Numbered from the stretch's first letter, positions 10,305 through 31,689 are shown. The stretch is DNA of 64,000 bases from Escherichia coli (GCF_003018235.1 NZ_CP027437.1), one strand, 5' to 3'. Program-made: numbers and translations. Notes: generated by a model not told the origin, from the letters alone.

Positions 10305-10316
10305 TTCCTGACTGAT

Positions 10317-10346: not shown

Positions 10347-10441
10347 CCTTCTCCGGCTTACAACACACTATTAAGAAACAAAAAAAACAGCGCCCAACAC
10401 TTCCCCGGACGCTGCATGGCAACTTTAATAATCTCGCCTTA

Positions 10442-11464: not shown

Positions 11465-11602
11465 GATTCGGCTCTCCATTTTTTGTTGCCTTAGATATCA
11501 ATGAAAATGAAAAATGGCAGCGGAACGGAAAATCTGTTTTGTGAAAACACACGCATAAAAATGTTTTAAATCGGGTTTTAATGGACTCACAAGGAGGAAA
11601 AT

Positions 11603-12517
11603 ATGAGTCGTTCACAAAATTTACGCCACAATGTGATTAACCAGGTCATTGATGATATGGCGCGGGGTCATATCCCTTCCCCACTTCCATCGCAAAGTGC
11701 GCTGGCGGAAATGTACAACATCAGCCGCACTACAGTGCGTCATATTCTCAGCCACTTACGCGAATGCGGCGTCTTAACGCAGGTTGGAAACGACTATGTG
11801 ATTGCGCGTAAACCTGACCATGATGACGGTTTCGCCTGTACTACCGCTTCAATGAGTGAACAAAACAAAGTGTTTGAGCAGGCTTTTTTCACGATGATAA
11901 ACCAGCGCCAGTTACGCCCTGGGGAAACTTTTTCTGAACTGCAACTGGCTCGGGCCGCGGGTGTCAGCCCGGTTGTAGTAAGAGAATATCTTTTAAAATT
12001 CGGCCGTTATAATCTTATTCAAAGCGAAAAGCGCGGCCAGTGGAGCATGAAGCAATTCGATCAATCCTACGCCGAGCAGCTGTTTGAACTACGCGAAATG
12101 CTCGAAACACATTCACTTCAGCACTTTCTCAACCTGCCTGATCATGATCCCCGCTGGCTGCAGGCGAAAACCATGCTCGAACGTCATCGGCTACTGCGTG
12201 ACAACATCGGCAATAGCTTTCGCATGTTCTCGCAACTTGACAGAGATTTTCACTCCTTACTGCTTTCAGCTGCCGACAATATCTTTTTTGATCAATCTCT
12301 TGAGATCATCTCAGTCATCTTTCATTTTCACTATCAATGGGACGAAAGCGATCTTAAACAGCGCAATATCATTACCGTCGATGAGCATATGACCATTCTC
12401 AGCGCTCTGATTTGCCGCAGTGACCTTGATGCCACCCTTGCGCTCCGTAACCATTTGAATTCAGCTAAACAATCAATGATTCGATCCATTAATGAGAACA
12501 CGCGTTATGCTCATTAA
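11603..12517 (+). CDS. lgoR: GntR-family transcriptional regulator of L-galactonate utilisation
   Basis: 304-aa ORF with N-terminal wHTH (SQSALAEMYNISRTTVRHIL). Confidence 0.85.
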   Translation: MSRSQNLRHNVINQVIDDMARGHIPSPLPSQSALAEMYNISRTTVRHILSHLRECGVLTQVGNDYVIARKPDHDDGFACTTASMSEQNKVFEQAFFTMINQRQLRPGETFSELQLARAAGVSPVVVREYLLKFGRYNLIQSEKRGQWSMKQFDQSYAEQLFELREMLETHSLQHFLNLPDHDPRWLQAKTMLERHRLLRDNIGNSFRMFSQLDRDFHSLLLSAADNIFFDQSLEIISVIFHFHYQWDESDLKQRNIITVDEHMTILSALICRSDLDATLALRNHLNSAKQSMIRSINENTRYAH

Positions 12518-14093: not shown

Positions 14094-14102
14094 ACTCCCT
14101 AT

Positions 14103-14136
14103 GCCCGATAACATTTTGCTTATCGGGCATTTTTAT
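14103..14136. terminator. Bidirectional rho-independent terminator between convergent lgoT and tsr
   Basis: gcccgataa-cattttgc-ttatcgggc stem-loop followed by atttttat. Confidence 0.7.
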
Positions 14137-14141
14137 GGCGA

Positions 14142-15806
14142 TTAAAACGTTTCCCAGTTCTCCCCGCTATCTGCCACTGCCATTTTACGCGGCGTAGCTG
14201 GCGTCACGTTTTTTACCACAGCCGATGTTTCACGCTGCTGTTGCTGCTGTTGCTGAATCCGGAACACTGCCACAGCTTCGGTCAGGCGACTGGCCTGCTC
14301 TTCCAGCGCGGCGGCGGCAGCGGCAGATTCTTCCACCAGCGCAGCGTTCTGTTGAGTTACCCGGTCCATCTCAGCAACCGCTAAGCCAACCTGATCGATA
14401 CCACGGCTCTGCTCATCAGAAGCAGAAGCAATTTCGCCCATAATGTCCGTCACGCGGGTCACAGCGCTGACAATCTCCGCCATTGTTTCCCCGGCGCTTT
14501 CGACCAGCGTAGAGCCAACATCCACTTTCCCCACCGAGTCTTCAATCAGGCTTTTAATTTCGCGAGCCGCCTGGGCGCTGCGCTGGGCCAGATTACGCAC
14601 TTCGCCCGCGACCACCGCAAAACCGCGCCCTTGCTCACCCGCACGCGCAGCCTCAACCGCCGCGTTCAAAGCCAGAATATTGGTCTGGAAGGCAATGCCG
14701 TCAATTACGCTGATAATATCGGCGATTTTCTGCGAACTGGTGGAGATATCGCGCATGGTCTGCACCACGTTATCCACCACTTTGCCGCCGCGTTGCGCCG
14801 TTTCGGAAGCACTTAACGCCAGGTGGCTGGCCTGACGCGCATTTTCGGCGTTCTGCTTCACCGTTGCGGTCAGTTGCTCCATGCTGGCTGCCGTCTCTTC
14901 CAGCGAAGCGGCCTGTTGCTCGGTGCGCGAAGAGAGATCGTTATTGCCGGTGGCGATTTCGCTGGCACCGCTATAGATGGCATTGGCCCCGTTGCGCACA
15001 TCACCGACGGTACGCATCAGCTCTCCCTGCATATGGCGCAAACTCTCTGCCAGTTGCCCCATCTCATTAGAGCCATCCACCTCAATCGGTTTCACCAGAT
15101 CGCCGCCTGCAATATGACGAATGCTGTCAATCAGGCGATTCATTGGCGCTACCAACGAGGCTTTAATACCGAACCAGACGGCGAAGATGACCGCCAGTAC
15201 GACGATCATCACGCCCACCAGGATCCACATCGCCTGGCTGTAGGAGGCATTATTATCGCTGACGGCGATATCATAGAGCCGATCGTTTTGCTCCATGTAA
15301 GCCACATACTGCTTCTCGAAACCGTCCTGATATCCCTGGGTCGGCTGATCAAAGAACTCGTTGATTTTGCCTGCACCTAACAGTTGGATCAGCTCCGCCA
15401 GCGCATTGTGATAAATATCGTAATTACGTTTGATCTCTGCCGCTGCGGCGGTGCTCTGACGCGGGTCACGCGGCAACGCTTCGTAATCCGCCCAGTTTTT
15501 TTCCGCCTGTTTCAGCGAAATACTGGCACTCTGCATCAGCTCAGCAACGGTTGAACCGCTACCAATATTATTCTGATCCATCATGTAGCGGATACCCGCG
15601 CGGTTGAGGGTGTTACGCGTCTGCAACAACGCGACCCAGCTGCCATTCAGCGTGGATTGCTGCTGGCGAATGGTTTGTAAAACAGTGAAATTTTCTTTGT
15701 CATTCTTTAAGGCATTAAAGAACAGACCGCCTGATGTCAGTTGTAAAAGGCCAAAAACGGCCAAAACCAGCAGTAAGCTGGTCACAATTTTGATACGTTT
15801 TAACAT
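14142..15806 (-). CDS. tsr: Methyl-accepting chemotaxis protein I (serine chemoreceptor)
   Basis: 554-aa ORF with two TM segments, HAMP, methylation helices ([17 protein letters not shown]) and C-terminal NWETF pentapeptide. Confidence 0.95.
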
Positions 15807-15924
15807 GTTTTCTCTTTCCTGTGGACCGATGCAAGATTTTCGGCCTGGAAAGGAAAAACTTTATGAAAAGGTGTAACCCGCCATCCATGGAAAAACCAGG
15901 CGCTGGTTATCAGATATTAAAAAG

Positions 15925-16371
15925 TTATTCATTATCGCCCGGGATGTCTTCTTGTCGGGAATTACCCAGAGCAATAAATTCCTCTAACAGATGGGTTAAC
16001 TGTTGCATTTTCTCGGCAGTAAACTGAGCTTCAATCTGCCGATAGGCCTCTTCAATCTGTGTCTGAGCGCGGTTATACAGCGCCTGCCCCTCTTTGGTCA
16101 GCGAGATATAGAGCTTCCGCTGATCATTGATCGGCTTTAATCGCAACACTAAACCGTCGCGTTCCATCCGCGTAAGGATCCCGGTCAGGCTTGGGCGCAA
16201 AATGCAGGCGCGATACGCCAGATCGTGAAAATCCATTGATGGGCTTTCCGCCAGAATACGCACGATGCGCCACTGTTGCTCAGTCAAATTATGCCGTTTA
16301 ACGATTGGGCGAAAATAACTCATCGCCGCTTCTCGCGCCTGGAGCAACGCAATGGTTAGAGAGTCGTGCAT
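15925..16371 (-). CDS. hpaR: MarR-family repressor of homoprotocatechuate degradation
   Basis: ORF 15925..16452, start at MHDSLTIALLQ; MarR wHTH; divergent from hpaG. Confidence 0.8.
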   Translation of the reverse strand: MHDSLTIALLQAREAAMSYFRPIVKRHNLTEQQWRIVRILAESPSMDFHDLAYRACILRPSLTGILTRMERDGLVLRLKPINDQRKLYISLTKEGQALYNRAQTQIEEAYRQIEAQFTAEKMQQLTHLLEEFIALGNSRQEDIPGDNE

Positions 16372-16642
16372 TATCTTTCCCCTGAAAAATTCAAAATCAT
16401 TAATATAGAAACAGTTAATCATCACGTTACCGGGACTGCGCTGCCCCTGCAATTCTTCATTTTATCAAAATTGAGCATGTTTTGTTAACTTGCTGATATT
16501 TAATATTTTATTATCTTTAAATGTAAATGGTTTGTTAATTAGATCACATTTACATCACTTACTTTTGCCAAACTACGCAATCGGGAATAAAAGTAATCAT
16601 TAACATATTAATGATTAAGATGATCGAATCCGAGGAGTGGTA

Positions 16643-17932
16643 ATGAAAGGCACTATCTTCGCCGTAGCGTTGAACCATCGCAGCCAGCTTGATGCATGGC
16701 AGGAAGCGTTCCAGCAATCCCCCTACAAAACCCCGCCTAAAACTGCGGTCTGGTTTATTAAACCACGCAATACGGTGATTGGTTGCGGTGAACGGATTCC
16801 CTTTCCACAGGGTGAAAAGGTACTGAGCGGTGCGACTGTTGCGTTGATGGTGGGGAAAACGGCGACGAAAGTACGTGAAGAAGATGCGGCAGAGTACATC
16901 GCCGGATATGCGCTGGCTAACGACGTCAGCCTGCCGGAAGAGAGCTTTTACCGCCCGGCAATCAAAGCAAAATGTCGTGATGGATTCTGCCCCATTGGCG
17001 AAACCGTGGCTCTCAGCAATGTCGATAATCTGACTATCTATACCGAGATCAACGGGCGTCCTGCCGATCACTGGAATACCGCCGATTTACAACGTAACGC
17101 CGCACAGTTGCTGAGCGCCCTGAGCGAATTTGCCACGCTGAATCCAGGCGATGCCATTCTGCTCGGCACGCCACAGGCGCGCGTGGAAATACAGCCAGGC
17201 GATCGCGTGCGTGTTCTCGCAGAAGGTTTCCCGCCACTGGAAAATCCGGTAGTGGACGAACGTGAAGTGACCACGCGCAAGAGCTTCCCAACGCAGCCAC
17301 ACCCGCACGGCACGCTGTTTGCCCTCGGCCTGAACTACGCCGACCACGCCAGCGAACTGGAATTTAAGCCACCGGAAGAACCGCTGGTGTTCCTGAAAGC
17401 GCCGAATACCCTCACTGGCGATAACCAGACCTCCGTGCGCCCGAACAATATTGAATACATGCACTACGAAGCGGAGCTGGTGGTAGTTATTGGCAAGCAG
17501 GCGCGTAACGTCAGCGAAGCCGATGCCATGGATTATGTCGCGGGCTACACCGTGTGTAACGACTACGCCATTCGCGACTATCTGGAAAACTACTACCGCC
17601 CTAACCTGCGGGTAAAAAGCCGCGACGGACTGACGCCGATGCTTTCAACCATCGTGCCGAAAGAGGCGATCCCGGACCCGCATAATCTGACCCTTCGCAC
17701 CTTCGTCAACGGCGAGTTACGCCAGCAAGGCACCACCGCCGATCTGATCTTCAGCGTGCCCTTCCTGATCGCCTACTTAAGCGAATTTATGACCCTGAAT
17801 CCGGGCGACATGATCGCCACCGGCACACCAAAAGGCTTATCTGACGTGGTGCCTGGCGATGAAGTAGTGGTGGAAGTAGAAGGCGTGGGCCGCCTGGTGA
17901 ACCGAATTGTGAGTGAGGAAACAGCGAAATGA
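16643..17932 (+). CDS. hpaG: Bifunctional 5-oxopent-3-ene-1,2,5-tricarboxylate decarboxylase / 2-hydroxyhepta-2,4-diene-1,7-dioate isomerase (two FAH-like domains)
   Basis: 429-aa ORF after GAGGAG RBS; duplicated fumarylacetoacetate-hydrolase-like halves. Confidence 0.9.
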   Translation: MKGTIFAVALNHRSQLDAWQEAFQQSPYKTPPKTAVWFIKPRNTVIGCGERIPFPQGEKVLSGATVALMVGKTATKVREEDAAEYIAGYALANDVSLPEESFYRPAIKAKCRDGFCPIGETVALSNVDNLTIYTEINGRPADHWNTADLQRNAAQLLSALSEFATLNPGDAILLGTPQARVEIQPGDRVRVLAEGFPPLENPVVDEREVTTRKSFPTQPHPHGTLFALGLNYADHASELEFKPPEEPLVFLKAPNTLTGDNQTSVRPNNIEYMHYEAELVVVIGKQARNVSEADAMDYVAGYTVCNDYAIRDYLENYYRPNLRVKSRDGLTPMLSTIVPKEAIPDPHNLTLRTFVNGELRQQGTTADLIFSVPFLIAYLSEFMTLNPGDMIATGTPKGLSDVVPGDEVVVEVEGVGRLVNRIVSEETAK

Positions 17933-19395
17933 AAAAAGTAAATCATTGGATCAACGGCAAAAATGTTGCAGGTAACGACTACTTCCAGACCACCAATCCG
18001 GCAACGGGTGAAGTGCTGGCAGATGTGGCCTCCGGCGGTGAAGCGGAGATCAATCAGGCGGTAGCGGCAGCGAAAGAGGCGTTCCCGAAATGGGCCAATC
18101 TGCCGATGAAAGAGCGTGCGCGCCTGATGCGCCGTCTGGGCGATCTGATCGACCAGAACGTGCCTGAGATCGCCGCGATGGAAACCGCGGACACGGGCCT
18201 GCCGATCCATCAGACCAAAAATGTATTGATCCCACGCGCTTCTCACAACTTTGAATTTTTCGCGGAAGTCTGCCAGCAGATGAACGGCAAGACCTATCCG
18301 GTTGACGACAAGATGCTCAACTACACGCTGGTGCAACCGGTAGGCGTTTGTGCGCTGGTATCGCCGTGGAACGTGCCGTTTATGACCGCCACATGGAAGG
18401 TCGCGCCGTGTCTGGCGCTGGGCAATACCGCGGTGTTGAAAATGTCGGAACTCTCCCCGCTGACCGCTGACCGCCTGGGTGAGCTGGCGCTGGAAGCCGG
18501 TATTCCGGCGGGCGTGCTGAACGTGGTACAGGGCTACGGCGCAACCGCAGGCGATGCGCTGGTTCGTCATCATGACGTACGTGCCGTGTCGTTCACCGGC
18601 GGTACGGCCACCGGGCGCAACATCATGAAAAACGCCGGGCTGAAAAAATACTCCATGGAACTGGGCGGTAAATCGCCGGTGCTGATTTTTGAAGATGCCG
18701 ATATTGAACGCGCGCTGGACGCTGCCCTGTTCACCATCTTCTCGATCAACGGCGAGCGCTGCACCGCCGGTTCGCGCATCTTTATTCAGCAAAGCATCTA
18801 CCCGGAATTCGTTAAACGCTTTGCCGAACGCGCCAACCGTCTGCGCGTGGGCGATCCGAACGATCCGAATACCCAGGTTGGGGCGCTTATCAGCCAGCAA
18901 CACTGGGAAAAAGTCTCCGGCTATATTCGTCTCGGCATTGAAGAAGGCGCAACCCTGCTGGCGGGCGGTCCGGATAAACCGTCCGACCTGCCTGCGCACC
19001 TGAAAGGCGGCAACTTCCTGCGCCCAACGGTGCTGGCTGACGTTGATAACCGTATGCGCGTCGCCCAGGAAGAGATTTTCGGGCCGGTCGCCTGTCTGCT
19101 GCCGTTTAAAGACGAAGCTGAAGGTCTGCGCCTGGCAAATGACGTGGAGTATGGCCTCGCGTCGTACATCTGGACGCAGGATGTCAGCAAAGTGTTACGC
19201 CTGGCGCGTGGCATTGAAGCAGGCATGGTGTTCGTCAACACCCAGAACGTGCGCGACCTGCGCCAGCCGTTTGGCGGCGTAAAAGCCTCCGGCACCGGGC
19301 GTGAAGGCGGTGAGTACAGCTTCGAAGTGTTCGCGGAAATGAAGAACGTCTGCATTTCCATGGGCGAGCATCCAATTCCGAAATGGGGAGTCTGA
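17929..19395 (+). CDS. hpaE: 5-carboxymethyl-2-hydroxymuconate semialdehyde dehydrogenase (aldehyde dehydrogenase family)
   Basis: 488-aa ORF with ALDH motifs (catalytic Cys in GERCTAG, FTGGTATG); overlaps hpaG stop. Confidence 0.9.
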   Translation: MKKVNHWINGKNVAGNDYFQTTNPATGEVLADVASGGEAEINQAVAAAKEAFPKWANLPMKERARLMRRLGDLIDQNVPEIAAMETADTGLPIHQTKNVLIPRASHNFEFFAEVCQQMNGKTYPVDDKMLNYTLVQPVGVCALVSPWNVPFMTATWKVAPCLALGNTAVLKMSELSPLTADRLGELALEAGIPAGVLNVVQGYGATAGDALVRHHDVRAVSFTGGTATGRNIMKNAGLKKYSMELGGKSPVLIFEDADIERALDAALFTIFSINGERCTAGSRIFIQQSIYPEFVKRFAERANRLRVGDPNDPNTQVGALISQQHWEKVSGYIRLGIEEGATLLAGGPDKPSDLPAHLKGGNFLRPTVLADVDNRMRVAQEEIFGPVACLLPFKDEAEGLRLANDVEYGLASYIWTQDVSKVLRLARGIEAGMVFVNTQNVRDLRQPFGGVKASGTGREGGEYSFEVFAEMKNVCISMGEHPIPKWGV

Positions 19396-19396
19396 T

Positions 19397-20248
19397 ATGG
19401 GTAAGTTAGCGTTAGCCGCCAAAATCACGCACGTACCGTCGATGTATCTCTCTGAACTGCCAGGGAAAAACCACGGTTGCCGCCAGGGTGCGATCGACGG
19501 GCATAAAGAGATCAGCAAGCGTTGCCGGGAAATGGGCGTCGATACCATTATCGTTTTCGATACTCACTGGCTGGTCAACAGTGCTTATCACATCAACTGT
19601 GCAGACCATTTTGAAGGCGTCTACACCAGTAACGAGCTGCCGCATTTTATTCGTGACATGACCTACAACTACGAGGGCAACCCGGAGTTGGGGCAGCTTA
19701 TTGCCGATGAAGCGTTAAAACTCGGCGTGCGGGCAAAAGCGCACAATATTCCCAGCCTGAAACTGGAATACGGCACGCTGGTGCCAATGCGCTACATGAA
19801 TGAAGACAAGCACTTCAAAGTGGTCTCCATTTCGGCTTTCTGCACGGTTCACGATTTTGCCGACAGCCGCAAGCTTGGCGAAGCGATTTTGAAAGCAATC
19901 GAACAGTACGACGGCACCGTGGCGGTCCTTGCCAGCGGTTCGTTATCGCACCGCTTTATTGACGATCAGCGTGCAGAAGAAGGGATGAACAGCTACACCC
20001 GCGAGTTCGACCGCCAGATGGACGAGCGCGTGGTGAAGCTGTGGCGCGAAGGCCAGTTCAAAGAGTTCTGCAATATGCTGCCGGAGTACGCCGACTACTG
20101 CTACGGCGAAGGCAATATGCACGACACGGTGATGCTGCTGGGGATGCTCGGCTGGGATAAATACGACGGCAAGGTGGAGTTTATTACCGAGCTGTTCCCA
20201 AGCTCTGGCACCGGTCAGGTTAACGCTGTTTTCCCGCTTCCCGCGTAA
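19397..20248 (+). CDS. hpaD: 3,4-dihydroxyphenylacetate (homoprotocatechuate) 2,3-dioxygenase, extradiol class III (LigB-type)
   Basis: 283-aa ORF immediately after hpaE. Confidence 0.9.
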   Translation: MGKLALAAKITHVPSMYLSELPGKNHGCRQGAIDGHKEISKRCREMGVDTIIVFDTHWLVNSAYHINCADHFEGVYTSNELPHFIRDMTYNYEGNPELGQLIADEALKLGVRAKAHNIPSLKLEYGTLVPMRYMNEDKHFKVVSISAFCTVHDFADSRKLGEAILKAIEQYDGTVAVLASGSLSHRFIDDQRAEEGMNSYTREFDRQMDERVVKLWREGQFKEFCNMLPEYADYCYGEGNMHDTVMLLGMLGWDKYDGKVEFITELFPSSGTGQVNAVFPLPA

Positions 20249-20257
20249 GGAACCACC

Positions 20258-20638
20258 ATGCCGCACTTTATCGTGGAATGTACTGAAAATATTCGTCAAG
20301 AAGCCCGCTTACCTGAGCTGTTTGCCAGTGTTAACACCGCACTGGCGGCGACGGGGATTTTTCCGCTTGGGGGAATACGTAGCCGGGCGCACTGGATCGA
20401 TACCTGGCAAATGGCTGATGGCAAGCACGATTACGCCTTTGTGCATATGACGCTAAAAATCGGCAGCGGGCGCAGTCTGGAAAGCCGTCAGGAAGTGGGC
20501 GAAATGCTGTTTGATCTGATTAAAACGCACTTCGCCTCACTGATGGAGAGCCGTTACCTGGCGCTTTCATTTGAGATTGCAGAGCTGCACCCGACGTTGA
20601 ATTTCAAACAGAACAACGTACACGCGTTGTTTAAATAA
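20258..20638 (+). CDS. hpaF: 5-carboxymethyl-2-hydroxymuconate isomerase
   Basis: 126-aa ORF starting [12 protein letters not shown] (tautomerase-like N-terminal Pro). Confidence 0.9.
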
Positions 20639-20655
20639 ATTTGCACCAGCTTCCA

Positions 20656-20686
20656 GGCCGGATGATAAGGCGCAGCCGCATCCGGC
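20656..20686. repeat. REP element between hpaF and hpaH
   Basis: gccggatgataaggcgcagccgcatccggc, canonical REP palindrome. Confidence 0.6.
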
Positions 20687-20705
20687 AATGCCACAGGATA
20701 TCGCT

Positions 20706-21509
20706 ATGTTCGATAAACACACCCACACCCTGATCGCCCAGCGTCTGGATCAGGCAGAAAAACAGCGCGAACAGATCCGCGCGATCTCGCTGGATTACCC
20801 GGAGATCACCATCGAAGACGCTTACGCGGTACAGCGTGAATGGGTTCGACTGAAAATCGCCGAAGGTCGCACGCTGAAAGGCCACAAAATCGGCCTGACC
20901 TCGAAAGCGATGCAGGCCAGCTCACAAATCAGCGAGCCGGATTACGGTGCCCTGCTGGATGACATGTTCTTCCACGATGGCAGCGATATCCCGACTGATC
21001 GCTTTATCGTGCCGCGCATTGAAGTGGAGCTGGCTTTCGTGCTGGCAAAACCGCTGCGTGGGCCAAACTGCACGCTGTTCGACGTCTACAACGCCACGGA
21101 CTATGTGATCCCGGCGCTGGAGCTGATCGACGCTCGCTGCCACAACATCGATCCGGAAACCCAGCGCCCGCGTAAAGTGTTCGACACCATTTCTGATAAC
21201 GCCGCCAATGCCGGGGTGATCCTCGGTGGTCGTCCCATTAAGCCCGATGAGTTGGATCTGCGTTGGATCTCCGCCCTGATGTATCGCAATGGCGTGATTG
21301 AAGAAACTGGCGTCGCCGCTGGCGTGCTGAATCACCCGGCAAACGGCGTAGCCTGGCTGGCGAACAAACTCGCACCGTATGACGTACAACTGGAAGCCGG
21401 GCAAATCATTCTCGGCGGTTCGTTCACCCGCCCGGTTCCGGCGCGTAAGGGCGACACCTTCCACGTCGATTACGGCAACATGGGCTCCATTAGCTGCCGC
21501 TTTGTTTAA
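20706..21509 (+). CDS. hpaH: 2-oxo-hept-4-ene-1,7-dioate hydratase
   Basis: ORF 20688..21509, start at [11 protein letters not shown] downstream of the REP; 267 aa. Confidence 0.85.
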
Positions 21510-21519
21510 GGAGAGAACG

Positions 21520-22323
21520 ATGGAAAACAGTTTTAAAGCGGCGCTGAAAGCAGGCCGCCCGCAGATCGGATTATGGCTGGGGCTAAGTAGCAGCTACAGC
21601 GCAGAGTTACTAGCCGGAGCAGGATTCGACTGGTTATTGATCGACGGTGAGCACGCGCCGAATAACGTGCAAACCGTGCTCACCCAACTACAGGCGATTG
21701 CGCCCTACCCCAGCCAGCCGGTAGTACGTCCGTCGTGGAACGATCCAGTGCAAATCAAACAACTGCTGGACGTCGGCACACAAACCTTACTGGTGCCGAT
21801 GGTACAAAACGCCGACGAAGCCCGTGAAGCGGTACGCGCCACCCGTTATCCCCCCGCCGGTATTCGCGGTGTGGGCAGTGCGCTGGCTCGCGCCTCGCGC
21901 TGGAATCGCATTCCTGATTACCTGCAAAAAGCCAACGATCAAATGTGCGTGCTGGTGCAGATCGAAACGCGTGAGGCAATGAAGAAATTACCGCAGATTC
22001 TGGACGTGGAAGGGGTCGACGGCGTGTTTATCGGCCCGGCGGATCTGAGCGCCGATATGGGTTATGCCGGTAATCCACAGCACCCGGAAGTACAGGTCGC
22101 CATTGAGCAGGCGATCGTGCAGATCCGCGAAGCGGGCAAAGCGCCGGGGATCCTGATCGCCAATGAGCAACTGGCAAAACGCTATCTGGAACTGGGCGCG
22201 CTGTTTGTCGCCGTCGGCGTTGACACCACCCTGCTCGCCCGCGCCGCCGAAGCGTTGGCAGCACGGTTTGGTAATAGTTCTTCTATTTCGATGGCGAAGC
22301 AAAACAACAACTCTGTCTACTAA
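21520..22323 (+). CDS. hpaI: 4-hydroxy-2-oxo-heptane-1,7-dioate aldolase (HpcH/HpaI class II aldolase)
   Basis: Start at [12 protein letters not shown] with AAGGAGAG RBS inside longer ORF 21379..22323. Confidence 0.85.
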
Positions 22324-22344
22324 ACGTACGATGTGGAGCGCATC

Positions 22345-23700
22345 ATGACGACCTCTACCCTGCAATATAAAGATAATAAAACTGTTGAAATTGAACATCG
22401 TGTCATTAATAAATTATTTCGTCGCCTAATCATTTTTCTTTTTATTCTGTTTGTTTTTTCGTTTCTTGATCGCATCAATATAGGATTTGCCGGACTGACA
22501 ATGGGCAAGGATCTTGGCCTGACGTCCACAATGTTTGGCCTCGCCGCGACACTCTTTTATGTCACGTACGTCATGTGCGGGATCCCCAGTAATATGATGT
22601 TAGCGAAAATTGGCGCTCGTCGATGGATCGCTGGGATCATGGTGGTCTGGGGAGTTGCTTCCACCTGCACAATGTTTGCAACAAGCCCCGAAACACTCTA
22701 TCTACTGCGTATGCTGGTTGGTATTGCTGAGGCGGGTTTTTTACCTGGTATTTTGGTTTATCTGACCTGGTGGTTCCCGGCATATCATCGGGCCAGAGCC
22801 AATGCCTTATTTATGATAGCGATGCCAGTCACTATGATGCTGGGATCGATCCTTTCAGGCTACATTCTGGCCTTGGATGGACTGTGGAATCTAAAAGGCT
22901 GGCAATGGCTCTTTTTGCTGGAAGGTCTGCCATCGGTCATTCTTGGTGTCGTCACCTGGTTTTATCTCAACGACACACCAGACCAGGCGACCTGGCTTGA
23001 TGAAAACGAAAAACAGGCTTTAAAAACGATGATTCTCCGTGAACAAGAGAGTGCATTTGCCCATGCATCTGTTCCACGCTCAACCTTACGTGAAGTCCTG
23101 ACCCCAGCCATCATGCTATATACACTTGCTTATTTTTGCCTGACCAATACTCTGAGTGCGATTAATATCTGGACGCCGCAAATCCTACAGAGTTTCAATA
23201 CTGGCAGTAGCAACATCATGATTGGTTTGCTGGCGGCCATCCCCCAATTCTGCACAATTTTTGGCATGATCTGGTGGAGTCGTCGTTCCGACCGTCTTAA
23301 AGAACGCAAAAAGCATACGATTCTTCCCTACCTGTTTGCCGCTGCCGGATGGTTACTCGCTTCTGCGACTGATCACAGCCTCATTCAACTGAGCGGCATC
23401 ATTATGGCCTCAATGGGATCATTTACCGCAATGGCTATCTTTTGGACGACACCGGATCAAGTAATAAGCTTGCAATCGCGTGCCGTTGCGATGGCTGTCA
23501 TCAATGCTGTCGGTAATGTAGGTTCAGCAGTCAGTCCATTACTTATCGGTATTTTGAAAGATGCAACCGGCAGTTTTAGCTCAGGTTTGTGGTTTGTAGC
23601 AGGATTACTGGTACTGGGCGCGTTAGTCATGACCCGAATTCCTATGGGGAGTCGGGAACACTCTCTTTCATCTGAACTTATCGCACCAAAACCGCAATAA
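22345..23700 (+). CDS. hpaX: MFS 4-hydroxyphenylacetate permease
   Basis: ORF 22333..23700, start at MTTSTLQYK; 12-TM MFS profile. Confidence 0.85.
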   Translation: MTTSTLQYKDNKTVEIEHRVINKLFRRLIIFLFILFVFSFLDRINIGFAGLTMGKDLGLTSTMFGLAATLFYVTYVMCGIPSNMMLAKIGARRWIAGIMVVWGVASTCTMFATSPETLYLLRMLVGIAEAGFLPGILVYLTWWFPAYHRARANALFMIAMPVTMMLGSILSGYILALDGLWNLKGWQWLFLLEGLPSVILGVVTWFYLNDTPDQATWLDENEKQALKTMILREQESAFAHASVPRSTLREVLTPAIMLYTLAYFCLTNTLSAINIWTPQILQSFNTGSSNIMIGLLAAIPQFCTIFGMIWWSRRSDRLKERKKHTILPYLFAAAGWLLASATDHSLIQLSGIIMASMGSFTAMAIFWTTPDQVISLQSRAVAMAVINAVGNVGSAVSPLLIGILKDATGSFSSGLWFVAGLLVLGALVMTRIPMGSREHSLSSELIAPKPQ

Positions 23701-23706
23701 GGAGTC

Positions 23707-24600
23707 ATGATGTCCAGTGAAGCTATCTTTGAACATGGTTATGAAAATATTGATTTGGTCCGGGAATATGATGCCCGCTACGCTGGTGAAGATGTGCATT
23801 ATGAAACATTTGCCAGGTTAGCGAATTTCTTTGGACGCGATATGCGCCCTCACTGGCACGATAGATATTTTCAACTCCATTATCTGGTCACTGGACGCAT
23901 TACTTTACAGCTGGATGAGCACTTCTATTCTGTGCGCGCACCGCTTTTTGTACTAACACCACCATCGGTGCCACATACTTTCTTTACTGAGCCTGATAGC
24001 GACGGGCATGTTCTGACCGTACGTCAGGAGTTAATTTGGCCCCTGGTAGAAAAGCTCTGGCCTGGTAGTGGAGATGCCGCAATGCTACAAGGTATCTGTC
24101 TATCGCTGGAGGGAATGGAACATACACTGGCGGCATTAAATCATTATTGGCCGATAATATCCCTGGAGTTTCAACAAAATAAGCCAGGACGGGAAATTCT
24201 ATTGCAATCACTGGCGCAAAGTATTTTTACAATCCTACTGCGTGAAGCACCACCAAATGATATTTCAACATGCAGCGTGCGCGGCGAGATGTGTTTATTC
24301 CAGAAGTTTAATCGGCTGATTGACGAAAATTATCGCCAACATTTAATGGTCCCTGAATATGCAGCAATGCTCGGTATGAGTGAATCACGGCTTACCGAGC
24401 TGTGCCGACGTTTTGCCAATCAATCGCCGAAGAGATTGATTTTCGAACGAGTGAGCCGGGAAGCCAGACGGCTTCTGCTCTATAGCGAGCAAAGCATCAA
24501 CCAGATTGCCCTTGATCTTGGCTACAAAGATCCCGCCTATTTCGCCCGTTTTTTCAACCGAATGATGGGTTGCTCACCAACACAATTCCGTGGTCGCTGA
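23707..24600 (+). CDS. hpaA: AraC/XylS-family activator of hpaBC
   Basis: 297-aa ORF with C-terminal AraC HTH (LGYKDPAYFARFFNRMMGCSP). Confidence 0.85.
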   Translation: MMSSEAIFEHGYENIDLVREYDARYAGEDVHYETFARLANFFGRDMRPHWHDRYFQLHYLVTGRITLQLDEHFYSVRAPLFVLTPPSVPHTFFTEPDSDGHVLTVRQELIWPLVEKLWPGSGDAAMLQGICLSLEGMEHTLAALNHYWPIISLEFQQNKPGREILLQSLAQSIFTILLREAPPNDISTCSVRGEMCLFQKFNRLIDENYRQHLMVPEYAAMLGMSESRLTELCRRFANQSPKRLIFERVSREARRLLLYSEQSINQIALDLGYKDPAYFARFFNRMMGCSPTQFRGR

Positions 24601-24626
24601 CCATTTATCAACCTGAGAGACTCGAC

Positions 24627-25565
24627 ATGAAAATATCTTTACGCTCACTATTTGTGGCGTGCCTGATTGCGCCAGTGGCATTCACCTACGCCTCCGAACC
24701 GCAAGAAATGAAAATTGTACTACTTGGAACGAAAGGTGGCCCTTCTTTATTAAAAGCTGACCGTTTGCCGATGGCAACGGCACTTATTATTGGCAATAAA
24801 ACATGGTTAATTGATGCTGGTTACGGGGCCAGCTTACAACTGGTAAAAAATAATATTCCACTGCGCCAGATTGATAATATTTTACTCACCCATTTACACA
24901 GTGATCATATTCTGGACTATCCCTCAGTCTTAATGAATGCATGGGCTAGCGGTCTGCAGGACAAAACTATTCATGTGTTCGGTCCGCCAGGCACCCGAGC
25001 CATGACCGCTGCCAGTTGGCAGGTCTTCGATCGGGACATCACACTGCGTATGGAAGAAGAAGGAAAACCCGATCCTCGCAAGCTCGTTACAGCTCAAGAT
25101 GTTGGTGAAGGCGTAGTTTATAAAGATGATACCGTGACCGTGACTGCATTAAAGGTTCCTCATTCTCCTTTCCCTGACGGTGAGGCTTTTGCTTATCGCT
25201 TCGACACACAAGGCAAGCGAATTGTCTTCTCAGGAGATACCTCGTACTTTCCCCCACTGGCAACTTTCTCAGAAGGCGCTGATATACTTGTGCATGAGGC
25301 CGTACATGAGCCCTCCGTCGCTAAGCTGGCAGACAGTATTGGCAATGGTAAAACACTGGCAAAAGCCATTGCTTCTCACCATACGACTATTGAGGATGTA
25401 GGCAAAATTGCCAATGAAGCAAAAGTGAAAAAACTCATCCTTAGCCACCTGGTACCAATCACCGTTCCGGATGAAACATGGAAGCAAGAAGCACAGAAAA
25501 ACTATTCAGGCCCTATCGTCGTTGGTCATGAAAATATGACGATTACCATTCCATTCGCCCCATAA
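24627..25565 (+). CDS. Secreted metallo-beta-lactamase-fold hydrolase (HxHxDH Zn motif), function unknown
   Basis: ORF 24570..25565, start at MKISLRSLFVACLIAPVAFTYA (signal peptide); THLHSDHILDYP motif; lies between hpaA and hpaB. Confidence 0.6.
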   Translation: MKISLRSLFVACLIAPVAFTYASEPQEMKIVLLGTKGGPSLLKADRLPMATALIIGNKTWLIDAGYGASLQLVKNNIPLRQIDNILLTHLHSDHILDYPSVLMNAWASGLQDKTIHVFGPPGTRAMTAASWQVFDRDITLRMEEEGKPDPRKLVTAQDVGEGVVYKDDTVTVTALKVPHSPFPDGEAFAYRFDTQGKRIVFSGDTSYFPPLATFSEGADILVHEAVHEPSVAKLADSIGNGKTLAKAIASHHTTIEDVGKIANEAKVKKLILSHLVPITVPDETWKQEAQKNYSGPIVVGHENMTITIPFAP

Positions 25566-25791
25566 AAAATTCCGTCCCCGTTAGCCCTTGTTAGCGGGGA
25601 ATATTATGATTTGCCTTACTGCAAGTTGATCACGATCGCAGTTTACTATTTAACTCCACCTTGCTGGCGAAAAGTACCAACGTTCGCCTGAAACGTCTCT
25701 TCCCGACAACCGCGTTCAACGCTTCAATTAAATAACAAAAACAACACACAAAATTAACAATCGTATTCCGATTAATACTGTAGAGGTCGAC

Positions 25792-27354
25792 ATGAAACCA
25801 GAAGATTTCCGCGCCAGTACCCAACGTCCGTTCACCGGGGAAGAGTATCTGAAAAGCCTGCAGGATGGTCGCGAGATCTATATCTATGGCGAGCGAGTGA
25901 AAGACGTCACTACTCATCCGGCATTTCGTAATGCGGCAGCGTCTGTTGCCCAACTGTACGACGCGCTGCACAAACCGGAGATGCAGGACTCTCTGTGTTG
26001 GAACACCGACACCGGCAGCGGCGGCTATACCCATAAATTCTTCCGCGTGGCGAAAAGTGCCGACGACCTGCGCCAGCAACGCGACGCCATCGCTGAGTGG
26101 TCACGCCTGAGCTATGGCTGGATGGGCCGCACCCCAGACTACAAAGCCGCTTTCGGTTGCGCACTGGGCGCGAATCCGGGCTTTTACGGTCAGTTCGAGC
26201 AGAACGCCCGTAACTGGTACACCCGTATTCAGGAAACTGGCCTCTACTTTAACCACGCGATTGTTAACCCACCGATTGATCGTCATTTGCCGACCGATAA
26301 AGTGAAAGACGTTTACATCAAGCTGGAAAAAGAGACTGACGCCGGGATTATCGTCAGCGGTGCGAAAGTGGTTGCCACCAACTCGGCGCTGACTCACTAC
26401 AACATGATTGGCTTCGGCTCGGCACAAGTGATGGGCGAAAACCCGGACTTCGCACTGATGTTCGTTGCGCCAATGGATGCCGATGGCGTGAAATTAATCT
26501 CCCGCGCCTCTTATGAAATGGTGGCGGGTGCTACCGGCTCGCCGTACGACTACCCGCTCTCCAGCCGCTTTGATGAGAACGATGCGATTCTGGTGATGGA
26601 TAACGTGCTGATCCCATGGGAAAACGTACTGATCTACCGCGATTTCGATCGCTGCCGTCGCTGGACAATGGAAGGTGGTTTTGCCCGTATGTATCCGCTG
26701 CAAGCCTGTGTGCGCCTGGCAGTGAAATTAGACTTCATTACGGCACTGCTGAAAAAATCACTCGAATGTACCGGCACCCTGGAGTTCCGTGGTGTGCAGG
26801 CCGATCTCGGTGAAGTGGTGGCGTGGCGCAACACCTTCTGGGCATTGAGTGACTCGATGTGTTCAGAAGCGACGCCGTGGGTCAACGGGGCTTATTTACC
26901 GGATCATGCCGCACTGCAAACCTATCGCGTACTGGCACCAATGGCCTACGCGAAGATCAAAAACATTATCGAACGCAACGTTACCAGTGGCCTGATCTAT
27001 CTTCCTTCCAGTGCCCGTGACCTGAACAATCCGCAGATCGACCAGTATCTGGCGAAGTATGTGCGCGGTTCGAATGGTATGGATCACGTCCAGCGCATCA
27101 AGATCCTCAAACTGATGTGGGATGCTATTGGCAGCGAATTTGGTGGTCGTCACGAACTGTATGAAATCAACTACTCCGGTAGCCAGGATGAGATTCGCCT
27201 GCAGTGTCTGCGCCAGGCACAAAGCTCCGGCAATATGGACAAGATGATGGCGATGGTTGATCGCTGCCTGTCGGAATACGACCAGAACGGCTGGACTGTG
27301 CCGCACCTGCACAACAACGACGATATCAACATGCTGGATAAGCTGCTGAAATAA
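25792..27354 (+). CDS. hpaB: 4-hydroxyphenylacetate 3-monooxygenase, oxygenase component (FADH2-dependent)
   Basis: 520-aa ORF; recognised sequence; followed by flavin reductase gene. Confidence 0.9.
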   Translation: MKPEDFRASTQRPFTGEEYLKSLQDGREIYIYGERVKDVTTHPAFRNAAASVAQLYDALHKPEMQDSLCWNTDTGSGGYTHKFFRVAKSADDLRQQRDAIAEWSRLSYGWMGRTPDYKAAFGCALGANPGFYGQFEQNARNWYTRIQETGLYFNHAIVNPPIDRHLPTDKVKDVYIKLEKETDAGIIVSGAKVVATNSALTHYNMIGFGSAQVMGENPDFALMFVAPMDADGVKLISRASYEMVAGATGSPYDYPLSSRFDENDAILVMDNVLIPWENVLIYRDFDRCRRWTMEGGFARMYPLQACVRLAVKLDFITALLKKSLECTGTLEFRGVQADLGEVVAWRNTFWALSDSMCSEATPWVNGAYLPDHAALQTYRVLAPMAYAKIKNIIERNVTSGLIYLPSSARDLNNPQIDQYLAKYVRGSNGMDHVQRIKILKLMWDAIGSEFGGRHELYEINYSGSQDEIRLQCLRQAQSSGNMDKMMAMVDRCLSEYDQNGWTVPHLHNNDDINMLDKLLK

Positions 27355-27371
27355 CGCAGCAGGAGGTTAAG

Positions 27372-27884
27372 ATGCAATTAGATGAACAACGCCTGCGCTT
27401 TCGTGACGCAATGGCCAGCCTGTCGGCAGCGGTAAATATTATCACCACCGAGGGCAACGCCGGGCAATGCGGGATTACGGCAACGGCTGTCTGCTCGGTC
27501 ACGGATACACCACCGTCGCTGATGGTGTGCATTAACGCCAACAGTGCGATGAACCCGGTTTTTCAGGGCAACGGTAAGTTGTGCGTCAACGTCCTCAACC
27601 ATGAGCAGGAACTGATGGCACGCCACTTCGCGGGCATGACAGGCATGGCGATGGAAGAGCGTTTTAGCCTCTCATGCTGGCAAAAAGGTCCGCTGGCGCA
27701 GCCGGTGCTAAAAGGTTCGCTGGCCAGTCTTGAAGGTGAGATCCGCGATGTGCAGGCAATTGGCACACATCTGGTGTATCTGGTGGAGATTAAAAACATC
27801 ATCCTCAGTGCAGAAGGTCACGGACTTATCTACTTTAAACGCCGTTTCCATCCGGTGATGCTGGAAATGGAAGCTGCGATTTAA
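27372..27884 (+). CDS. hpaC: 4-hydroxyphenylacetate 3-monooxygenase reductase component (NAD(P)H:flavin oxidoreductase)
   Basis: 170-aa ORF with flavin reductase-like fold, tight spacing after hpaB. Confidence 0.9.
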   Translation: MQLDEQRLRFRDAMASLSAAVNIITTEGNAGQCGITATAVCSVTDTPPSLMVCINANSAMNPVFQGNGKLCVNVLNHEQELMARHFAGMTGMAMEERFSLSCWQKGPLAQPVLKGSLASLEGEIRDVQAIGTHLVYLVEIKNIILSAEGHGLIYFKRRFHPVMLEMEAAI

Positions 27885-27892
27885 GCTCCAGA

Positions 27893-27925
27893 CCCTTCAC
27901 GTATTCGTCGAAGGGGCATTTTTAT
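27893..27925 (+). terminator. Rho-independent terminator after hpaC
   Basis: cccttc..gaaggg stem followed by gcatttttatt. Confidence 0.55.
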
Positions 27926-27941
27926 TGTGATCTCAATCACA
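27926..27941. promoter_or_regulatory. CRP binding site (TGTGA-N6-TCACA) upstream of btsT
   Basis: tgtgatctcaatcaca is a perfect match to both CRP half-sites. Confidence 0.6.
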
Positions 27942-27969
27942 TATCCACCCGATGAATAATTCTTGCCCA

Positions 27970-28018
27970 ACCGCTCACCGCCATTCCTGACCGCTTACAT
28001 CCCTAAAATAACCACTCA
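27970..28018 (+). promoter_or_regulatory. Three direct repeats ACC(G/A)CT(C/T)A, the BtsR (YehT) LytTR response-regulator motif, in btsT promoter
   Basis: accgctca, accgctta, accactca spaced ~20-21 bp apart. Confidence 0.55.
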
Positions 28019-28273
28019 GTTATTTACCTTACTTTACGCGCGCGTAACTCTGGCAACATCACTGCAGGATAGCGGTCAATTTACCTCCTCAAACGCAACG
28101 CAAACCTAGAACGGCTTCGGCCTATGATTAACAAATTACTCTATGGATTTTGGTTTGCAGGAAGGCAGCAAGTGAGTGAACCAGGAGCTTACAACAGTAA
28201 GTGACAGGGGTGAACGAACCCAGCTGCGGCACCTGTAAGCCAAAAGACGACGAGTAAAATGCCAGGTTTTACT

Positions 28274-30424
28274 ATGGATACGAAAAAACTATTCAAGCAC
28301 ATACCCTGGGTGATTCTCGGAATCATCGGTGCATTCTGCCTCGCGGTAGTTGCATTACGTCGGGGGGAGCACGTCAGCGCCCTGTGGATCGTGGTCGCCT
28401 CTGTGTCGGTGTATCTGGTGGCGTATCGCTACTACAGTCTGTACATCGCCCAGAAGGTGATGAAACTCGACCCCACGCGCGCGACGCCTGCGGTTATTAA
28501 CAACGACGGTCTGAACTACGTTCCGACCAACCGTTACGTGTTGTTTGGTCACCACTTCGCCGCTATCGCCGGTGCTGGTCCGCTGGTGGGTCCGGTTCTC
28601 GCCGCGCAGATGGGCTACCTGCCTGGCACGCTGTGGCTGCTGGCGGGGGTAGTGCTGGCCGGTGCGGTACAGGACTTTATGGTGCTGTTTATCTCCTCTC
28701 GCCGTAACGGCGCATCTCTCGGTGAGATGATCAAAGAAGAGATGGGACCAGTACCGGGGACTATCGCGCTGTTTGGCTGTTTCTTAATCATGATCATCAT
28801 CCTCGCCGTCCTGGCGCTGATTGTGGTTAAAGCCCTGGCCGAAAGTCCGTGGGGTGTCTTCACCGTTTGCTCAACCGTACCGATTGCGCTGTTTATGGGT
28901 ATCTACATGCGCTTTATCCGTCCGGGGCGTGTGGGTGAAGTCTCTGTCATTGGTATCGTGCTGCTGGTTGCCTCTATCTACTTCGGTGGCGTGATTGCTC
29001 ACGATCCGTACTGGGGTCCGGCACTGACCTTTAAAGACACCACCATTACCTTCGCGCTGATTGGCTATGCGTTTGTTTCCGCACTGCTGCCGGTGTGGCT
29101 GATCCTCGCACCGCGCGACTATCTGGCAACCTTCCTGAAAATCGGTGTTATCGTCGGCCTGGCACTGGGTATCGTGGTGTTGAACCCGGAACTGAAAATG
29201 CCTGCGATGACCCAGTACATTGACGGTACTGGCCCGCTGTGGAAAGGCGCTCTGTTCCCGTTCCTGTTCATCACCATCGCCTGTGGTGCGGTATCTGGCT
29301 TCCACGCGCTGATCTCTTCCGGTACGACGCCGAAACTGCTGGCTAACGAAACCGACGCGCGTTTCATTGGCTACGGCGCAATGCTGATGGAGTCCTTCGT
29401 GGCGATTATGGCGCTGGTTGCTGCGTCCATCATCGAACCGGGTCTTTACTTCGCGATGAACACCCCGCCTGCTGGCCTTGGCATCACCATGCCTAACCTG
29501 CATGAAATGGGTGGCGAGAACGCGCCGATCATCATGGCGCAGCTGAAAGACGTTACCGCACACGCGGCAGCGACCGTCAGCTCCTGGGGCTTCGTGATTT
29601 CGCCAGAGCAGATCCTGCAAACCGCGAAAGACATTGGTGAGCCTTCTGTCCTGAACCGTGCAGGTGGTGCGCCGACGCTGGCGGTAGGTATCGCTCACGT
29701 GTTCCACAAAGTGCTGCCGATGGCTGACATGGGCTTCTGGTATCACTTCGGTATTCTGTTCGAAGCCCTGTTCATCCTGACCGCGCTGGATGCGGGTACC
29801 CGTTCTGGCCGCTTTATGCTGCAAGATCTGCTGGGTAACTTCATCCCGTTCCTGAAAAAAACCGACTCCCTGGTTGCCGGTATCATCGGTACGGCGGGCT
29901 GTGTGGGTCTGTGGGGCTACCTGCTGTATCAGGGCGTGGTCGATCCGCTGGGCGGCGTTAAGAGCCTGTGGCCGCTGTTCGGTATCTCCAACCAGATGCT
30001 GGCAGCCGTGGCGCTGGTACTGGGTACCGTTGTGCTGATTAAGATGAAGCGCACCCAATACATCTGGGTAACTGTTGTTCCGGCTGTATGGTTGCTTATC
30101 TGCACCACCTGGGCGCTGGGCCTGAAACTGTTCAGCACCAACCCGCAGATGGAAGGCTTCTTCTACATGGCAAGCCAGTACAAAGAGAAGATTGCTAACG
30201 GTACTGACCTGACGGCGCAGCAGATTGCCAACATGAACCACATCGTTGTGAACAACTACACCAACGCAGGCCTGAGTATTCTGTTCCTGATTGTGGTGTA
30301 CAGCATCATCTTCTACGGTTTCAAAACCTGGCTTGCGGTGCGTAACAGCGACAAACGTACTGACAAAGAAACACCGTACGTTCCAATCCCGGAAGGCGGC
30401 GTGAAGATCTCTTCGCACCACTAA
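28274..30424 (+). CDS. btsT: CstA-family pyruvate/H+ symporter
   Basis: ORF 28259..30424, start at MDTKKLFKH; ~716 aa polytopic membrane protein; recognised YjiY sequence. Confidence 0.9.
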   Translation: MDTKKLFKHIPWVILGIIGAFCLAVVALRRGEHVSALWIVVASVSVYLVAYRYYSLYIAQKVMKLDPTRATPAVINNDGLNYVPTNRYVLFGHHFAAIAGAGPLVGPVLAAQMGYLPGTLWLLAGVVLAGAVQDFMVLFISSRRNGASLGEMIKEEMGPVPGTIALFGCFLIMIIILAVLALIVVKALAESPWGVFTVCSTVPIALFMGIYMRFIRPGRVGEVSVIGIVLLVASIYFGGVIAHDPYWGPALTFKDTTITFALIGYAFVSALLPVWLILAPRDYLATFLKIGVIVGLALGIVVLNPELKMPAMTQYIDGTGPLWKGALFPFLFITIACGAVSGFHALISSGTTPKLLANETDARFIGYGAMLMESFVAIMALVAASIIEPGLYFAMNTPPAGLGITMPNLHEMGGENAPIIMAQLKDVTAHAAATVSSWGFVISPEQILQTAKDIGEPSVLNRAGGAPTLAVGIAHVFHKVLPMADMGFWYHFGILFEALFILTALDAGTRSGRFMLQDLLGNFIPFLKKTDSLVAGIIGTAGCVGLWGYLLYQGVVDPLGGVKSLWPLFGISNQMLAAVALVLGTVVLIKMKRTQYIWVTVVPAVWLLICTTWALGLKLFSTNPQMEGFFYMASQYKEKIANGTDLTAQQIANMNHIVVNNYTNAGLSILFLIVVYSIIFYGFKTWLAVRNSDKRTDKETPYVPIPEGGVKISSHH

Positions 30425-31653: not shown

Positions 31654-31680
31654 GGCCGGATAAGGCGCAGCCGCATCCGG
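31654..31680. repeat. REP element between yjiA and mrr
   Basis: gccggataaggcgcagccgcatccgg, near-identical to the REP at 20656. Confidence 0.55.
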
Positions 31681-31689
31681 TCTGATATT

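Follow-up and report, generated by a model that had tools for sequence, protein, structure and literature searches.

What occupies the space between tsr and btsT in this Escherichia coli chromosome, how did it come to be there, and does it hold only genes that are already understood? In the window (the whole stretch of DNA analyzed here, 64,000 nucleotides [nt] of GCF_003018235.1, NZ_CP027437.1), the space is filled by an hpa cluster for the catabolism of 4-hydroxyphenylacetate (4-HPA), which an original prediction, made from the sequence alone, had described as a complete island inserted between the two genes. The island itself is already known from strains B, C, and W and is the textbook reason why K-12 cannot use hydroxyphenylacetates. 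What is new here is a rare recombinant version of that cluster, in which divergent alleles of hpaX and hpaA are followed by a twelfth gene, encoding a hydrolase of the metallo-beta-lactamase (MBL) fold. We put at roughly 85% the probability of an overall explanation in which a chromosomal hpa cluster at a fixed hotspot contains a recombinant module that encodes a hydrolase with an inferred role in the pathway.

PMC7201708 reports growth on 4-HPA and 3-hydroxyphenylacetate (3-HPA) for E. coli B, C, and W and none for K-12 (citing Cooper and Skinner 1980), and the characterization of an 11-gene cluster in strain W (citing Prieto et al. 1996). The hpa cluster of BL21/REL606 likewise comprises 11 genes, in 11,127 bp (PMC7201708).

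Gene content of the cluster

A 20-kb stretch around the cluster matches 5425 of 5426 complete E. coli genomes, as expected of chromosomal E. coli DNA, and is most similar to strain GN25, with which it is colinear at 98.5% identity. The gene order is lgoR, lgoT, tsr (minus strand), hpaR (minus strand), hpaG, hpaE, hpaD, hpaF, hpaH, hpaI, hpaX, hpaA, an open reading frame (ORF) of the MBL fold, hpaB, hpaC, btsT, yjiX, yjiA, mrr (minus strand), and hsdR. The genes hpaR, G, E, D, F, H, I, X, and A were judged against NCBIfam equivalog models by an end-to-end match and the curated cut-off, and the remaining assignments rest on the evidence given in brackets:

14142-15806, minus strand: tsr, the left flanking core gene (ORF list; RefSeq annotation of the colinear GN25 and K-12-type loci)
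15925-16371, minus strand: hpaR, MarR-type repressor of the meta-cleavage operon (TIGR02337 equivalog, 201 bits against a cut-off of 121)
16643-22323, plus strand: hpaGEDFHI, the homoprotocatechuate meta-cleavage operon (six full-length equivalog matches above cut-off), with the six genes on the next lines
16643-17932, plus strand: hpaG
17929-19395, plus strand: hpaE
19397-20248, plus strand: hpaD
20258-20638, plus strand: hpaF
20706-21509, plus strand: hpaH
21520-22323, plus strand: hpaI
22345-23700, plus strand: hpaX, 4-HPA permease of the major facilitator superfamily, divergent allele (TIGR02332, 862 bits against a cut-off of 615)
23710-24600, plus strand: hpaA, AraC-type activator of hpaBC, divergent allele (TIGR02297, 491 bits against a cut-off of 275)
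24627-25565, plus strand: the twelfth gene, MBL-fold hydrolase of 312 amino acids (aa) (Pfam Lactamase_B_2 and Lactamase_B)
25792-27884, plus strand: hpaBC, two-component 4-HPA 3-monooxygenase (Pfam HpaB_N, HpaB, Flavin_Reduct)
25792-27354, plus strand: hpaB
27372-27884, plus strand: hpaC
28274-30424, plus strand: btsT, the right flanking core gene (ORF list; annotations of colinear loci)

The cluster is complete and apparently intact, as originally claimed, because every hpa gene is full length with an equivalog-level match or, for hpaB and hpaC, complete Pfam domains (HpaB_N and HpaB in HpaB, Flavin_Reduct in HpaC), and none of them contains an internal stop. All eleven genes that the original prediction had named are thus present; its list overlooked the ORF at 24627-25565 between hpaA and hpaB. 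Order and orientation are canonical and colinear with the annotations of BL21, GN25, and ST2747, apart from this one added ORF. HpaR is 100% identical to that of BL21 at the amino acid level, the six meta-cleavage proteins (HpaG, E, D, F, H, and I) are 95.8 to 100% identical, and HpaB and HpaC are 99.6% and 99.4% identical. Arg379, which HpaB requires for growth on 3-HPA in addition to 4-HPA (PMC7201708), is present in the window protein. From the intact genes and this residue, we predict growth on both 4-HPA and 3-HPA as sole carbon sources.

Two differences among strains were seen in passing. In GN25, another carrier of this variant module, the annotation marks hpaA (13711-14601 of the GN25 locus) as a pseudogene interrupted by a stop codon, and the window hpaA is intact. 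Tsr has 554 aa in the window and in other strains with hpa or the alternative island, and 551 aa in K-12 and BL21.

A recombinant module within the cluster

Alignment to BL21 is at 98% on both sides of a central segment and falls to 67 to 69%, or to no match, across 22272-25668. One breakpoint is within the final ~50 nt of hpaI and the other is 55 to 125 nt upstream of the hpaB start codon, the right edge falling between 25669 and 25740. This defines the following feature:

22272-25740, plus strand: divergent replacement module, consisting of the last ~50 nt of hpaI, hpaX, hpaA, the MBL gene, and the distal hpaB upstream region

Composition changes at the same place. The GC content of hpaX, hpaA, and the MBL gene is 46.2 to 46.6% for each (46.5% for the module), and that of the remaining cluster is 54 to 57%; the hpaX and hpaA alleles of BL21 have 53 to 54% GC, and those of Salmonella have 52%. 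In amino acid identity, the window HpaX is as far from BL21 (69.3%) as from Salmonella (69.5%), while the BL21 and Salmonella proteins are 87.8% identical to each other. For HpaA, the corresponding values are 57.4%, 58.8%, and 86.8%. Relative to the hpa clusters of E. coli W, C, and B, the window has the same tsr-btsT site, the same gene order, and nearly the same HpaR, meta-cleavage, and HpaBC proteins, and differs in HpaX, HpaA, and the extra gene between hpaA and hpaB. HpaI also has a different C terminus in the window (267 aa, compared with 262 in BL21).

Sharp breakpoints, a uniformly low GC content, and the equal distance of HpaX and HpaA from their BL21 and Salmonella counterparts give the module the signature of an internal replacement by homologous recombination, in which an enterobacterial donor of lower GC content would have supplied the segment, with limited spread through E. 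coli afterward. Recombination with breakpoints in the 3' end of hpaI and upstream of hpaB would have exchanged the resident hpaX-hpaA for a 3.4-kb module of 46.5% GC, bringing in divergent HpaX and HpaA alleles together with the gene for a putative periplasmic, binuclear-metal MBL-fold hydrolase. Such divergent alleles could have shifted effector or substrate specificity.

The module is rare. Coverage of the window island exceeds 80% in only 48 of the 2073 hpa-positive genomes and is 72% in the rest, including BL21(DE3). The 48 copies, from a total of 5426 genomes and including those of ST2747 and 19KM1831, are all at least 99.2% identical; the sources of the carriers are humans, dogs, poultry, wild birds, cattle, and vegetables.

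The donor would belong to the Enterobacterales. The nearest HpaA proteins from outside E. coli are on metagenome contigs (84%), followed by Pluralibacter gergoviae (80%). Salmonella was rejected as the donor, its HpaX and HpaA being of the BL21 type (87 to 88% identical to BL21, 59 to 70% to the window), with only the MBL gene moderately close (77%); among 100,044 GTDB species representatives, no MBL protein exceeded that 77%. A plasmid origin was rejected as well, since no plasmid in PLSDB carries the module, and the best matches there are 67 to 73% identical and span hpaX-hpaA only.

A fixed hotspot rather than a mobile island

K-12 lacks the block, as the original prediction had said: in MG1655, btsT (b4354) adjoins tsr (b4355) with a spacer of 377 bp. 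The alignment to the K-12 spacer that had been proposed for defining the boundaries, taken together with an alignment to strain AHB3, places the junctions at 15867/15868 on the left and at 27908-27925 on the right. By BLAST, homology to the K-12-type locus ends at 15867 and returns at 27971 and once more at 28259; by reading of the sequence, similarity on the right already resumes at a CRP-like palindrome, TGTGA-N6-TCACA, at 27926-27941. The variable block is accordingly 15868-27924, or 12,057 bp, with these edges:

15866-15868, no strand: left junction of the variable block (BLAST homology ends at 15867 for the K-12-type locus and at 15865 for AHB3)
27893-27925, plus strand: hairpin and T-run after hpaC, at the right junction (alignment to AHB3 starts at 27908)

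The site has other contents in other strains. In the K-12-type locus, the block is replaced by ~88 bp of unrelated sequence, identical in MG1655, in which no hpa remnant was found and the only part in common is the CRP-like palindrome; with such filler, there is no clean empty state at the site. AHB3 (NZ_OZ547164.1; 3308-9463 of its locus) carries an unrelated block of five genes, encoding an RpiR regulator, a sodium:solute symporter (SSS), RidA, an N-acyl-D-amino-acid deacylase, and an amino-acid deaminase, with junctions that correspond to window positions 15865 and 27908. The 3' half of the terminator hairpin is common to this block and the hpa block. The five-gene block is full length in 194 of the 5426 genomes (AHB3 and 193 others), with partial matches in ~2000 more. 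The tsr-btsT hotspot therefore has at least three alternative fillings.

A classical mobile genomic island was considered and rejected. There is no integrase or transposase (every ORF in 15868-27924 is an hpa gene or the MBL gene), Rfam finds no tRNA gene near the block, and a search for direct or inverted repeats at the block boundaries gave only short matches at chance level. For these reasons, the block is a strain-variable segment at a fixed hotspot and not a mobile island.

Strain variability, also part of the original prediction, is borne out by the distribution of the cluster, which is carried by 2073 of the 5426 complete genomes (38%), from many hosts. Of the 2077 matching places, 2075 are chromosomal, and nearly all are 95 to 99% identical to the window cluster. 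The sole partial match, in BS-04 (NZ_CP172819.1, 4470309-4470982), is a stretch of ~700 bp, unannotated and 82% identical to the hpaR end, which may be a diverged remnant.

The description of the block as "inserted" is unproven: its divergence between strains, ~2 to 3%, is like that of its flanks, K-12 has filler in its place, a third block uses the same junctions, and the literature favors loss. We give even odds to the alternative that the cluster is ancestral at tsr-btsT and was lost from K-12 and other hpa-negative lineages by deletion or replacement. The similar divergence of the cluster (95 to 99% identity) and the flanking core genes (~98%) and the shared position in 38% of genomes from many hosts speak for it, and loss by K-12 is the prevailing view according to PMC7201708 (citing Diaz et al. 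2001). Against it stand the K-12 filler, free of hpa remnants, and the Salmonella hpa cluster, which lies in another neighborhood, beside cbpA/cbpM and scs-like genes, so that the locus is not conserved between genera. The presence or absence of the cluster would most likely have come about by homologous exchange through the flanking core genes, by loss in lineages such as K-12, or by both.

Repeats in and around the cluster

The original prediction had also pointed to two near-identical repetitive extragenic palindromic (REP) elements as possible recombination-prone boundaries of the island:

20656-20687, plus strand: single REP in the hpaF-hpaH spacer, inside the island (sequence read, exact-repeat and pattern search)
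31654-31682, plus strand: single REP between yjiA and mrr, 3.7 kb beyond the island (sequence read, exact-repeat search)

Both elements are real. The first reads GGCCGGATGATAAGGCGCAGCCGCATCCGGC and the second GGCCGGATAAGGCGCAGCCGCATCCGG; they have in common an exact core of 22 nt, GATAAGGCGCAGCCGCATCCGG, whose only two occurrences in the window are at 20664 and 31659. Both resemble the REP elements and bacterial interspersed mosaic elements (BIMEs) of enterobacteria in having the usual GCCGGATG..GCATCCGGC palindrome and an intergenic position at the end of a gene. Their proposed role as boundaries does not hold. Unlike what that role would call for, neither coincides with a junction (15867 and 27908-27925), and each also occurs in other strains: the hpaF-hpaH REP is in the BL21 cluster, where the region is colinear at 98%, and the yjiA-mrr REP is in hpa-negative K-12-type loci, which are colinear across it. 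Exchange between the two REPs would delete hpaH through yjiA, and no partial cluster ending at a REP was found in an even-step sample of the 2073 matches, in which every record spans query positions 1-12057 except one weak remnant. A 12-kb island inserted into a K-12-like spacer with these REPs as its boundaries is thus very improbable, even with the block absent from K-12 and the 22-nt core identical in the two elements; the ~88 bp of unrelated filler and the lack of mobility genes and target duplications argue against it as well.

Another repeat lies just beyond the right junction:

28135-28258, plus strand: imperfect palindromic repeat of 124 bp, 16 bp upstream of the btsT start codon (locus comparison)

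This element is predicted to fold at -51.9 kcal/mol (z = -7.6). We take it to be like the enterobacterial repetitive intergenic consensus (ERIC), or intergenic repeat unit (IRU), from similarity to the consensus; no Rfam model matched. BL21 and GN25 have it, the K-12-type, ST2747, and AHB3 loci do not, and it hence varies independently of hpa and is not part of the island; nor does it mark an island boundary. Its position inside the 5' leader of btsT may give it an effect on expression of that gene. The repeat core, GTGAGTGAATCCCC.GGAGC.TACA...GTGAC.GGGGTGAACGA, recurs in the hsd region at ~36345-36415 on the minus strand.

The spacer between hpaI and hpaX also differs between strains. In BL21, it is 123 bp long (9442-9564 of the BL21 locus) and contains two REP-like palindromes, both of which are missing from the 21-bp spacer of the window (22324-22344).

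The twelfth gene encodes a predicted exported hydrolase

The MBL gene begins 26 bp downstream of hpaA on the same strand. Its product has a predicted Sec-type signal peptide, MKISLRSLFVACLIAPVAFTYA, with cleavage at MKISLRSLFVACLIAPVAFTYA/SEP and a predicted mature protein of residues 23-312, and a motif HLHSDH at residues 89-94. In an alignment of 30 family members, nearly all of which have a predicted signal peptide, the metal-ligand positions H89, H91, H94, H179, D204, H252, and H274 show no variation and D93 shows almost none. The window protein thus retains the HxHxDH binuclear-metal motif and the remaining metal ligands of the S4 type. An AlphaFold model built on this alignment has a mean predicted local distance difference test (pLDDT) score of 88.4 and a predicted template modeling (pTM) score of 0.86.

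Three methods agree on the top solved match, 8GYG, an MBL-fold arylsulfatase of Pseudoalteromonas atlantica. By phmmer, the E value is 1.5e-25, with 28.7% identity over 268 aligned residues, and by Foldseek, it is 3e-27, with template modeling (TM) scores of 0.83/0.85. We take the S4 family of MBL-fold arylsulfatases to be represented by AtsA of Pseudoalteromonas carrageenovora and by structure 8GYG. No NCBIfam model reached its cut-off on the window protein, the best being GntH, RNase Z, and cyclic-nucleotide phosphodiesterase. An identity as RNase Z/ElaC was rejected, given that these models score 125 to 127 bits against cut-offs of 252 to 293 and the signal peptide predicts export.

SulfAtlas S4 is a small family next to the ElaC clade, with activity shown only on artificial aryl sulfates, and the SulfAtlas criterion for a family is at least 30% identity to a characterized member (PMC5066984). 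As the window hydrolase is 23 to 29% identical to 8GYG, at or below that rule, we describe it as resembling an S4 arylsulfatase and do not file it as a member. It also differs from S4 in its context, which is aromatic catabolism and not polysaccharide degradation or sulfur scavenging.

The gene appears to be under purifying selection, because the nonsynonymous divergence (dN) from the Salmonella ortholog is 0.15 with synonymous sites saturated, a saturation that makes dN/dS itself unusable.

Genomic context of relatives

A scan with the hydrolase-family alignment, one genome per species over 100,044 species, found 486 relatives, of which the best 80 loci were kept. The closest homolog from outside E. 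coli is in Salmonella enterica (77% amino acid identity), where it clusters with thousands of member sequences. There, the same twelfth gene, with a signal peptide, occupies the same place after hpaX-hpaA; the Salmonella cluster differs in lying at another chromosomal locus and in not having hpaBC downstream of the MBL gene. In one contig of the Salmonella type (SRR10037879), the end of a Mu-like prophage (MuA/MuB/Gam/Kil) is found at 250-5700, immediately upstream of the MBL gene, in the usual place of hpaX-hpaA.

Among the kept loci, hpa meta-cleavage genes lie immediately upstream of the homolog in both Salmonella subspecies, three Alcanivorax/Alloalcanivorax species, and a Salinisphaera, and a separate contig look-up gave the same arrangement in Pseudomonas putida. 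P. guariconensis, S. stutzeri, and an Acinetobacter have a gene for an HpaR-like MarR protein close by, and P. guariconensis, P. putida, and the same Acinetobacter have one for an OprD-type porin. At 12 to 13 loci of the Roseomonas type, the homolog lies between genes for homogentisate 1,2-dioxygenase and an FAD monooxygenase. At ~35 loci of the Bradyrhizobium type, it is overlapped by ~20 bp by a gene for a TauE/SafE membrane protein (sulfite-exporter family). In the locus of this type where the pair spans 8166-9924, a gene for an amine oxidase with a Tat signal follows downstream. This setting may hint at the chemistry of the family.

That homologs recur with 3,4- and 2,5-dihydroxyphenylacetate pathways across bacteria that are not related speaks for a functional connection, and their export suggests that they act on a precursor outside the cell or in the periplasm. 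A literature search for an MBL or sulfatase gene in hpa clusters, including STM1100/STM1109, found no description of one among the papers searched. STM1100 proved to be the MarR-type regulator.

A possible role in the pathway

The Hpa pathway is established for E. coli W, C, and B and is assigned to the window by orthology. HpaX would import 4- or 3-hydroxyphenylacetate, HpaBC would hydroxylate either to 3,4-dihydroxyphenylacetate, and HpaD, E, F, G, H, and I would convert this to pyruvate and succinate semialdehyde. HpaR would repress the meta operon, and HpaA would activate hpaBC. The MBL gene is probably cotranscribed with hpaX-hpaA, as suggested by the 26-bp gap after hpaA on the same strand. 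Consensus scans of 22200-28300 for promoters and terminators gave fewer matches than shuffled controls and were not used.

Within this scheme, the hydrolase may act in the periplasm on a conjugated or esterified compound of the hydroxyphenylacetate type, an aryl sulfate ester being the most plausible, and the free acid released would be taken up by HpaX and catabolized. We propose only tentatively that the exported MBL protein is an unrecognized accessory enzyme of hydroxyphenylacetate-type catabolism, a periplasmic aryl-sulfate or aryl-ester hydrolase that would free 4-HPA or dihydroxyphenylacetate from host or plant conjugates.

No greater likelihood attaches to a second possibility, that the MBL gene is a passenger unrelated to hydroxyphenylacetate and encodes, for example, a periplasmic phosphodiesterase/nuclease or a weak PNGM-1-type beta-lactamase. 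Structure comparison gives RNase Z, PNGM-1, YhfI, and PhnP-type phosphodiesterases as strong neighbors, the subthreshold NCBIfam matches point the same way, and about half of the sampled family (the Bradyrhizobium type) is not beside genes for aromatic catabolism. Against a passenger are the orthologs, 48 to 77% identical, in or at the end of hpa clusters in Salmonella, Pseudomonas, Alcanivorax/Alloalcanivorax, and Salinisphaera; the homologs beside homogentisate dioxygenase in Alphaproteobacteria; the short same-strand gap after hpaA; and the best match by all three methods, which is an arylsulfatase and not RNase Z.

Several observations count against the overall explanation, or against parts of it. 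For the hydrolase, identity to 8GYG in structural alignments is 23 to 24%, and RNase Z, PNGM-1, and phosphodiesterases are near neighbors in structure, so the substrate class cannot be read from the fold. The MBL gene is missing from 98% of hpa-positive E. coli, which also favors a passenger. For the module, the closest relatives of HpaX and HpaA (84 to 88% amino acid identity, on metagenome contigs) have hpaB directly after hpaA and no MBL gene, and Pluralibacter gergoviae is also without it; the three genes therefore need not have traveled together for long.

Other features of the window

Downstream of the cluster, an immigration-control region at 32738-~57000 contains hsdR, hsdM, hsdS, symE, mcrBC, large helicase-related genes, yjiT, yjiS, and yjiR, with an Rfam match to the SymR antisense RNA accompanying symE (39617-39693, minus strand). 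The region is highly variable: coverage of its 25 kb reaches 80% or more in only 197 genomes. Three tandem tRNA genes of 84 nt, with identical Rfam scores, lie at the window start (1053-1372).

Implications

For interpreting the E. coli pangenome, it is useful to know that the tsr-btsT spacer is a fixed hotspot, which can hold at least three different contents and has no machinery for mobility. In the recombinant hpa cluster, which ~1% of E. coli carry, the regulator and the transporter differ from the standard alleles as much as those of other genera do; the W/B alleles are the ones presumed in HpaA-based biosensors for 4-HPA and in hpa-based engineering. Unrelated bacteria, Salmonella among them, repeatedly have an exported metallo-hydrolase encoded in their dihydroxyphenylacetate clusters. 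If this enzyme does desulfate phenolic acids, it would tie a central aromatic pathway of gut bacteria to phase-II conjugates made by the host or to phenolic sulfates from plants.

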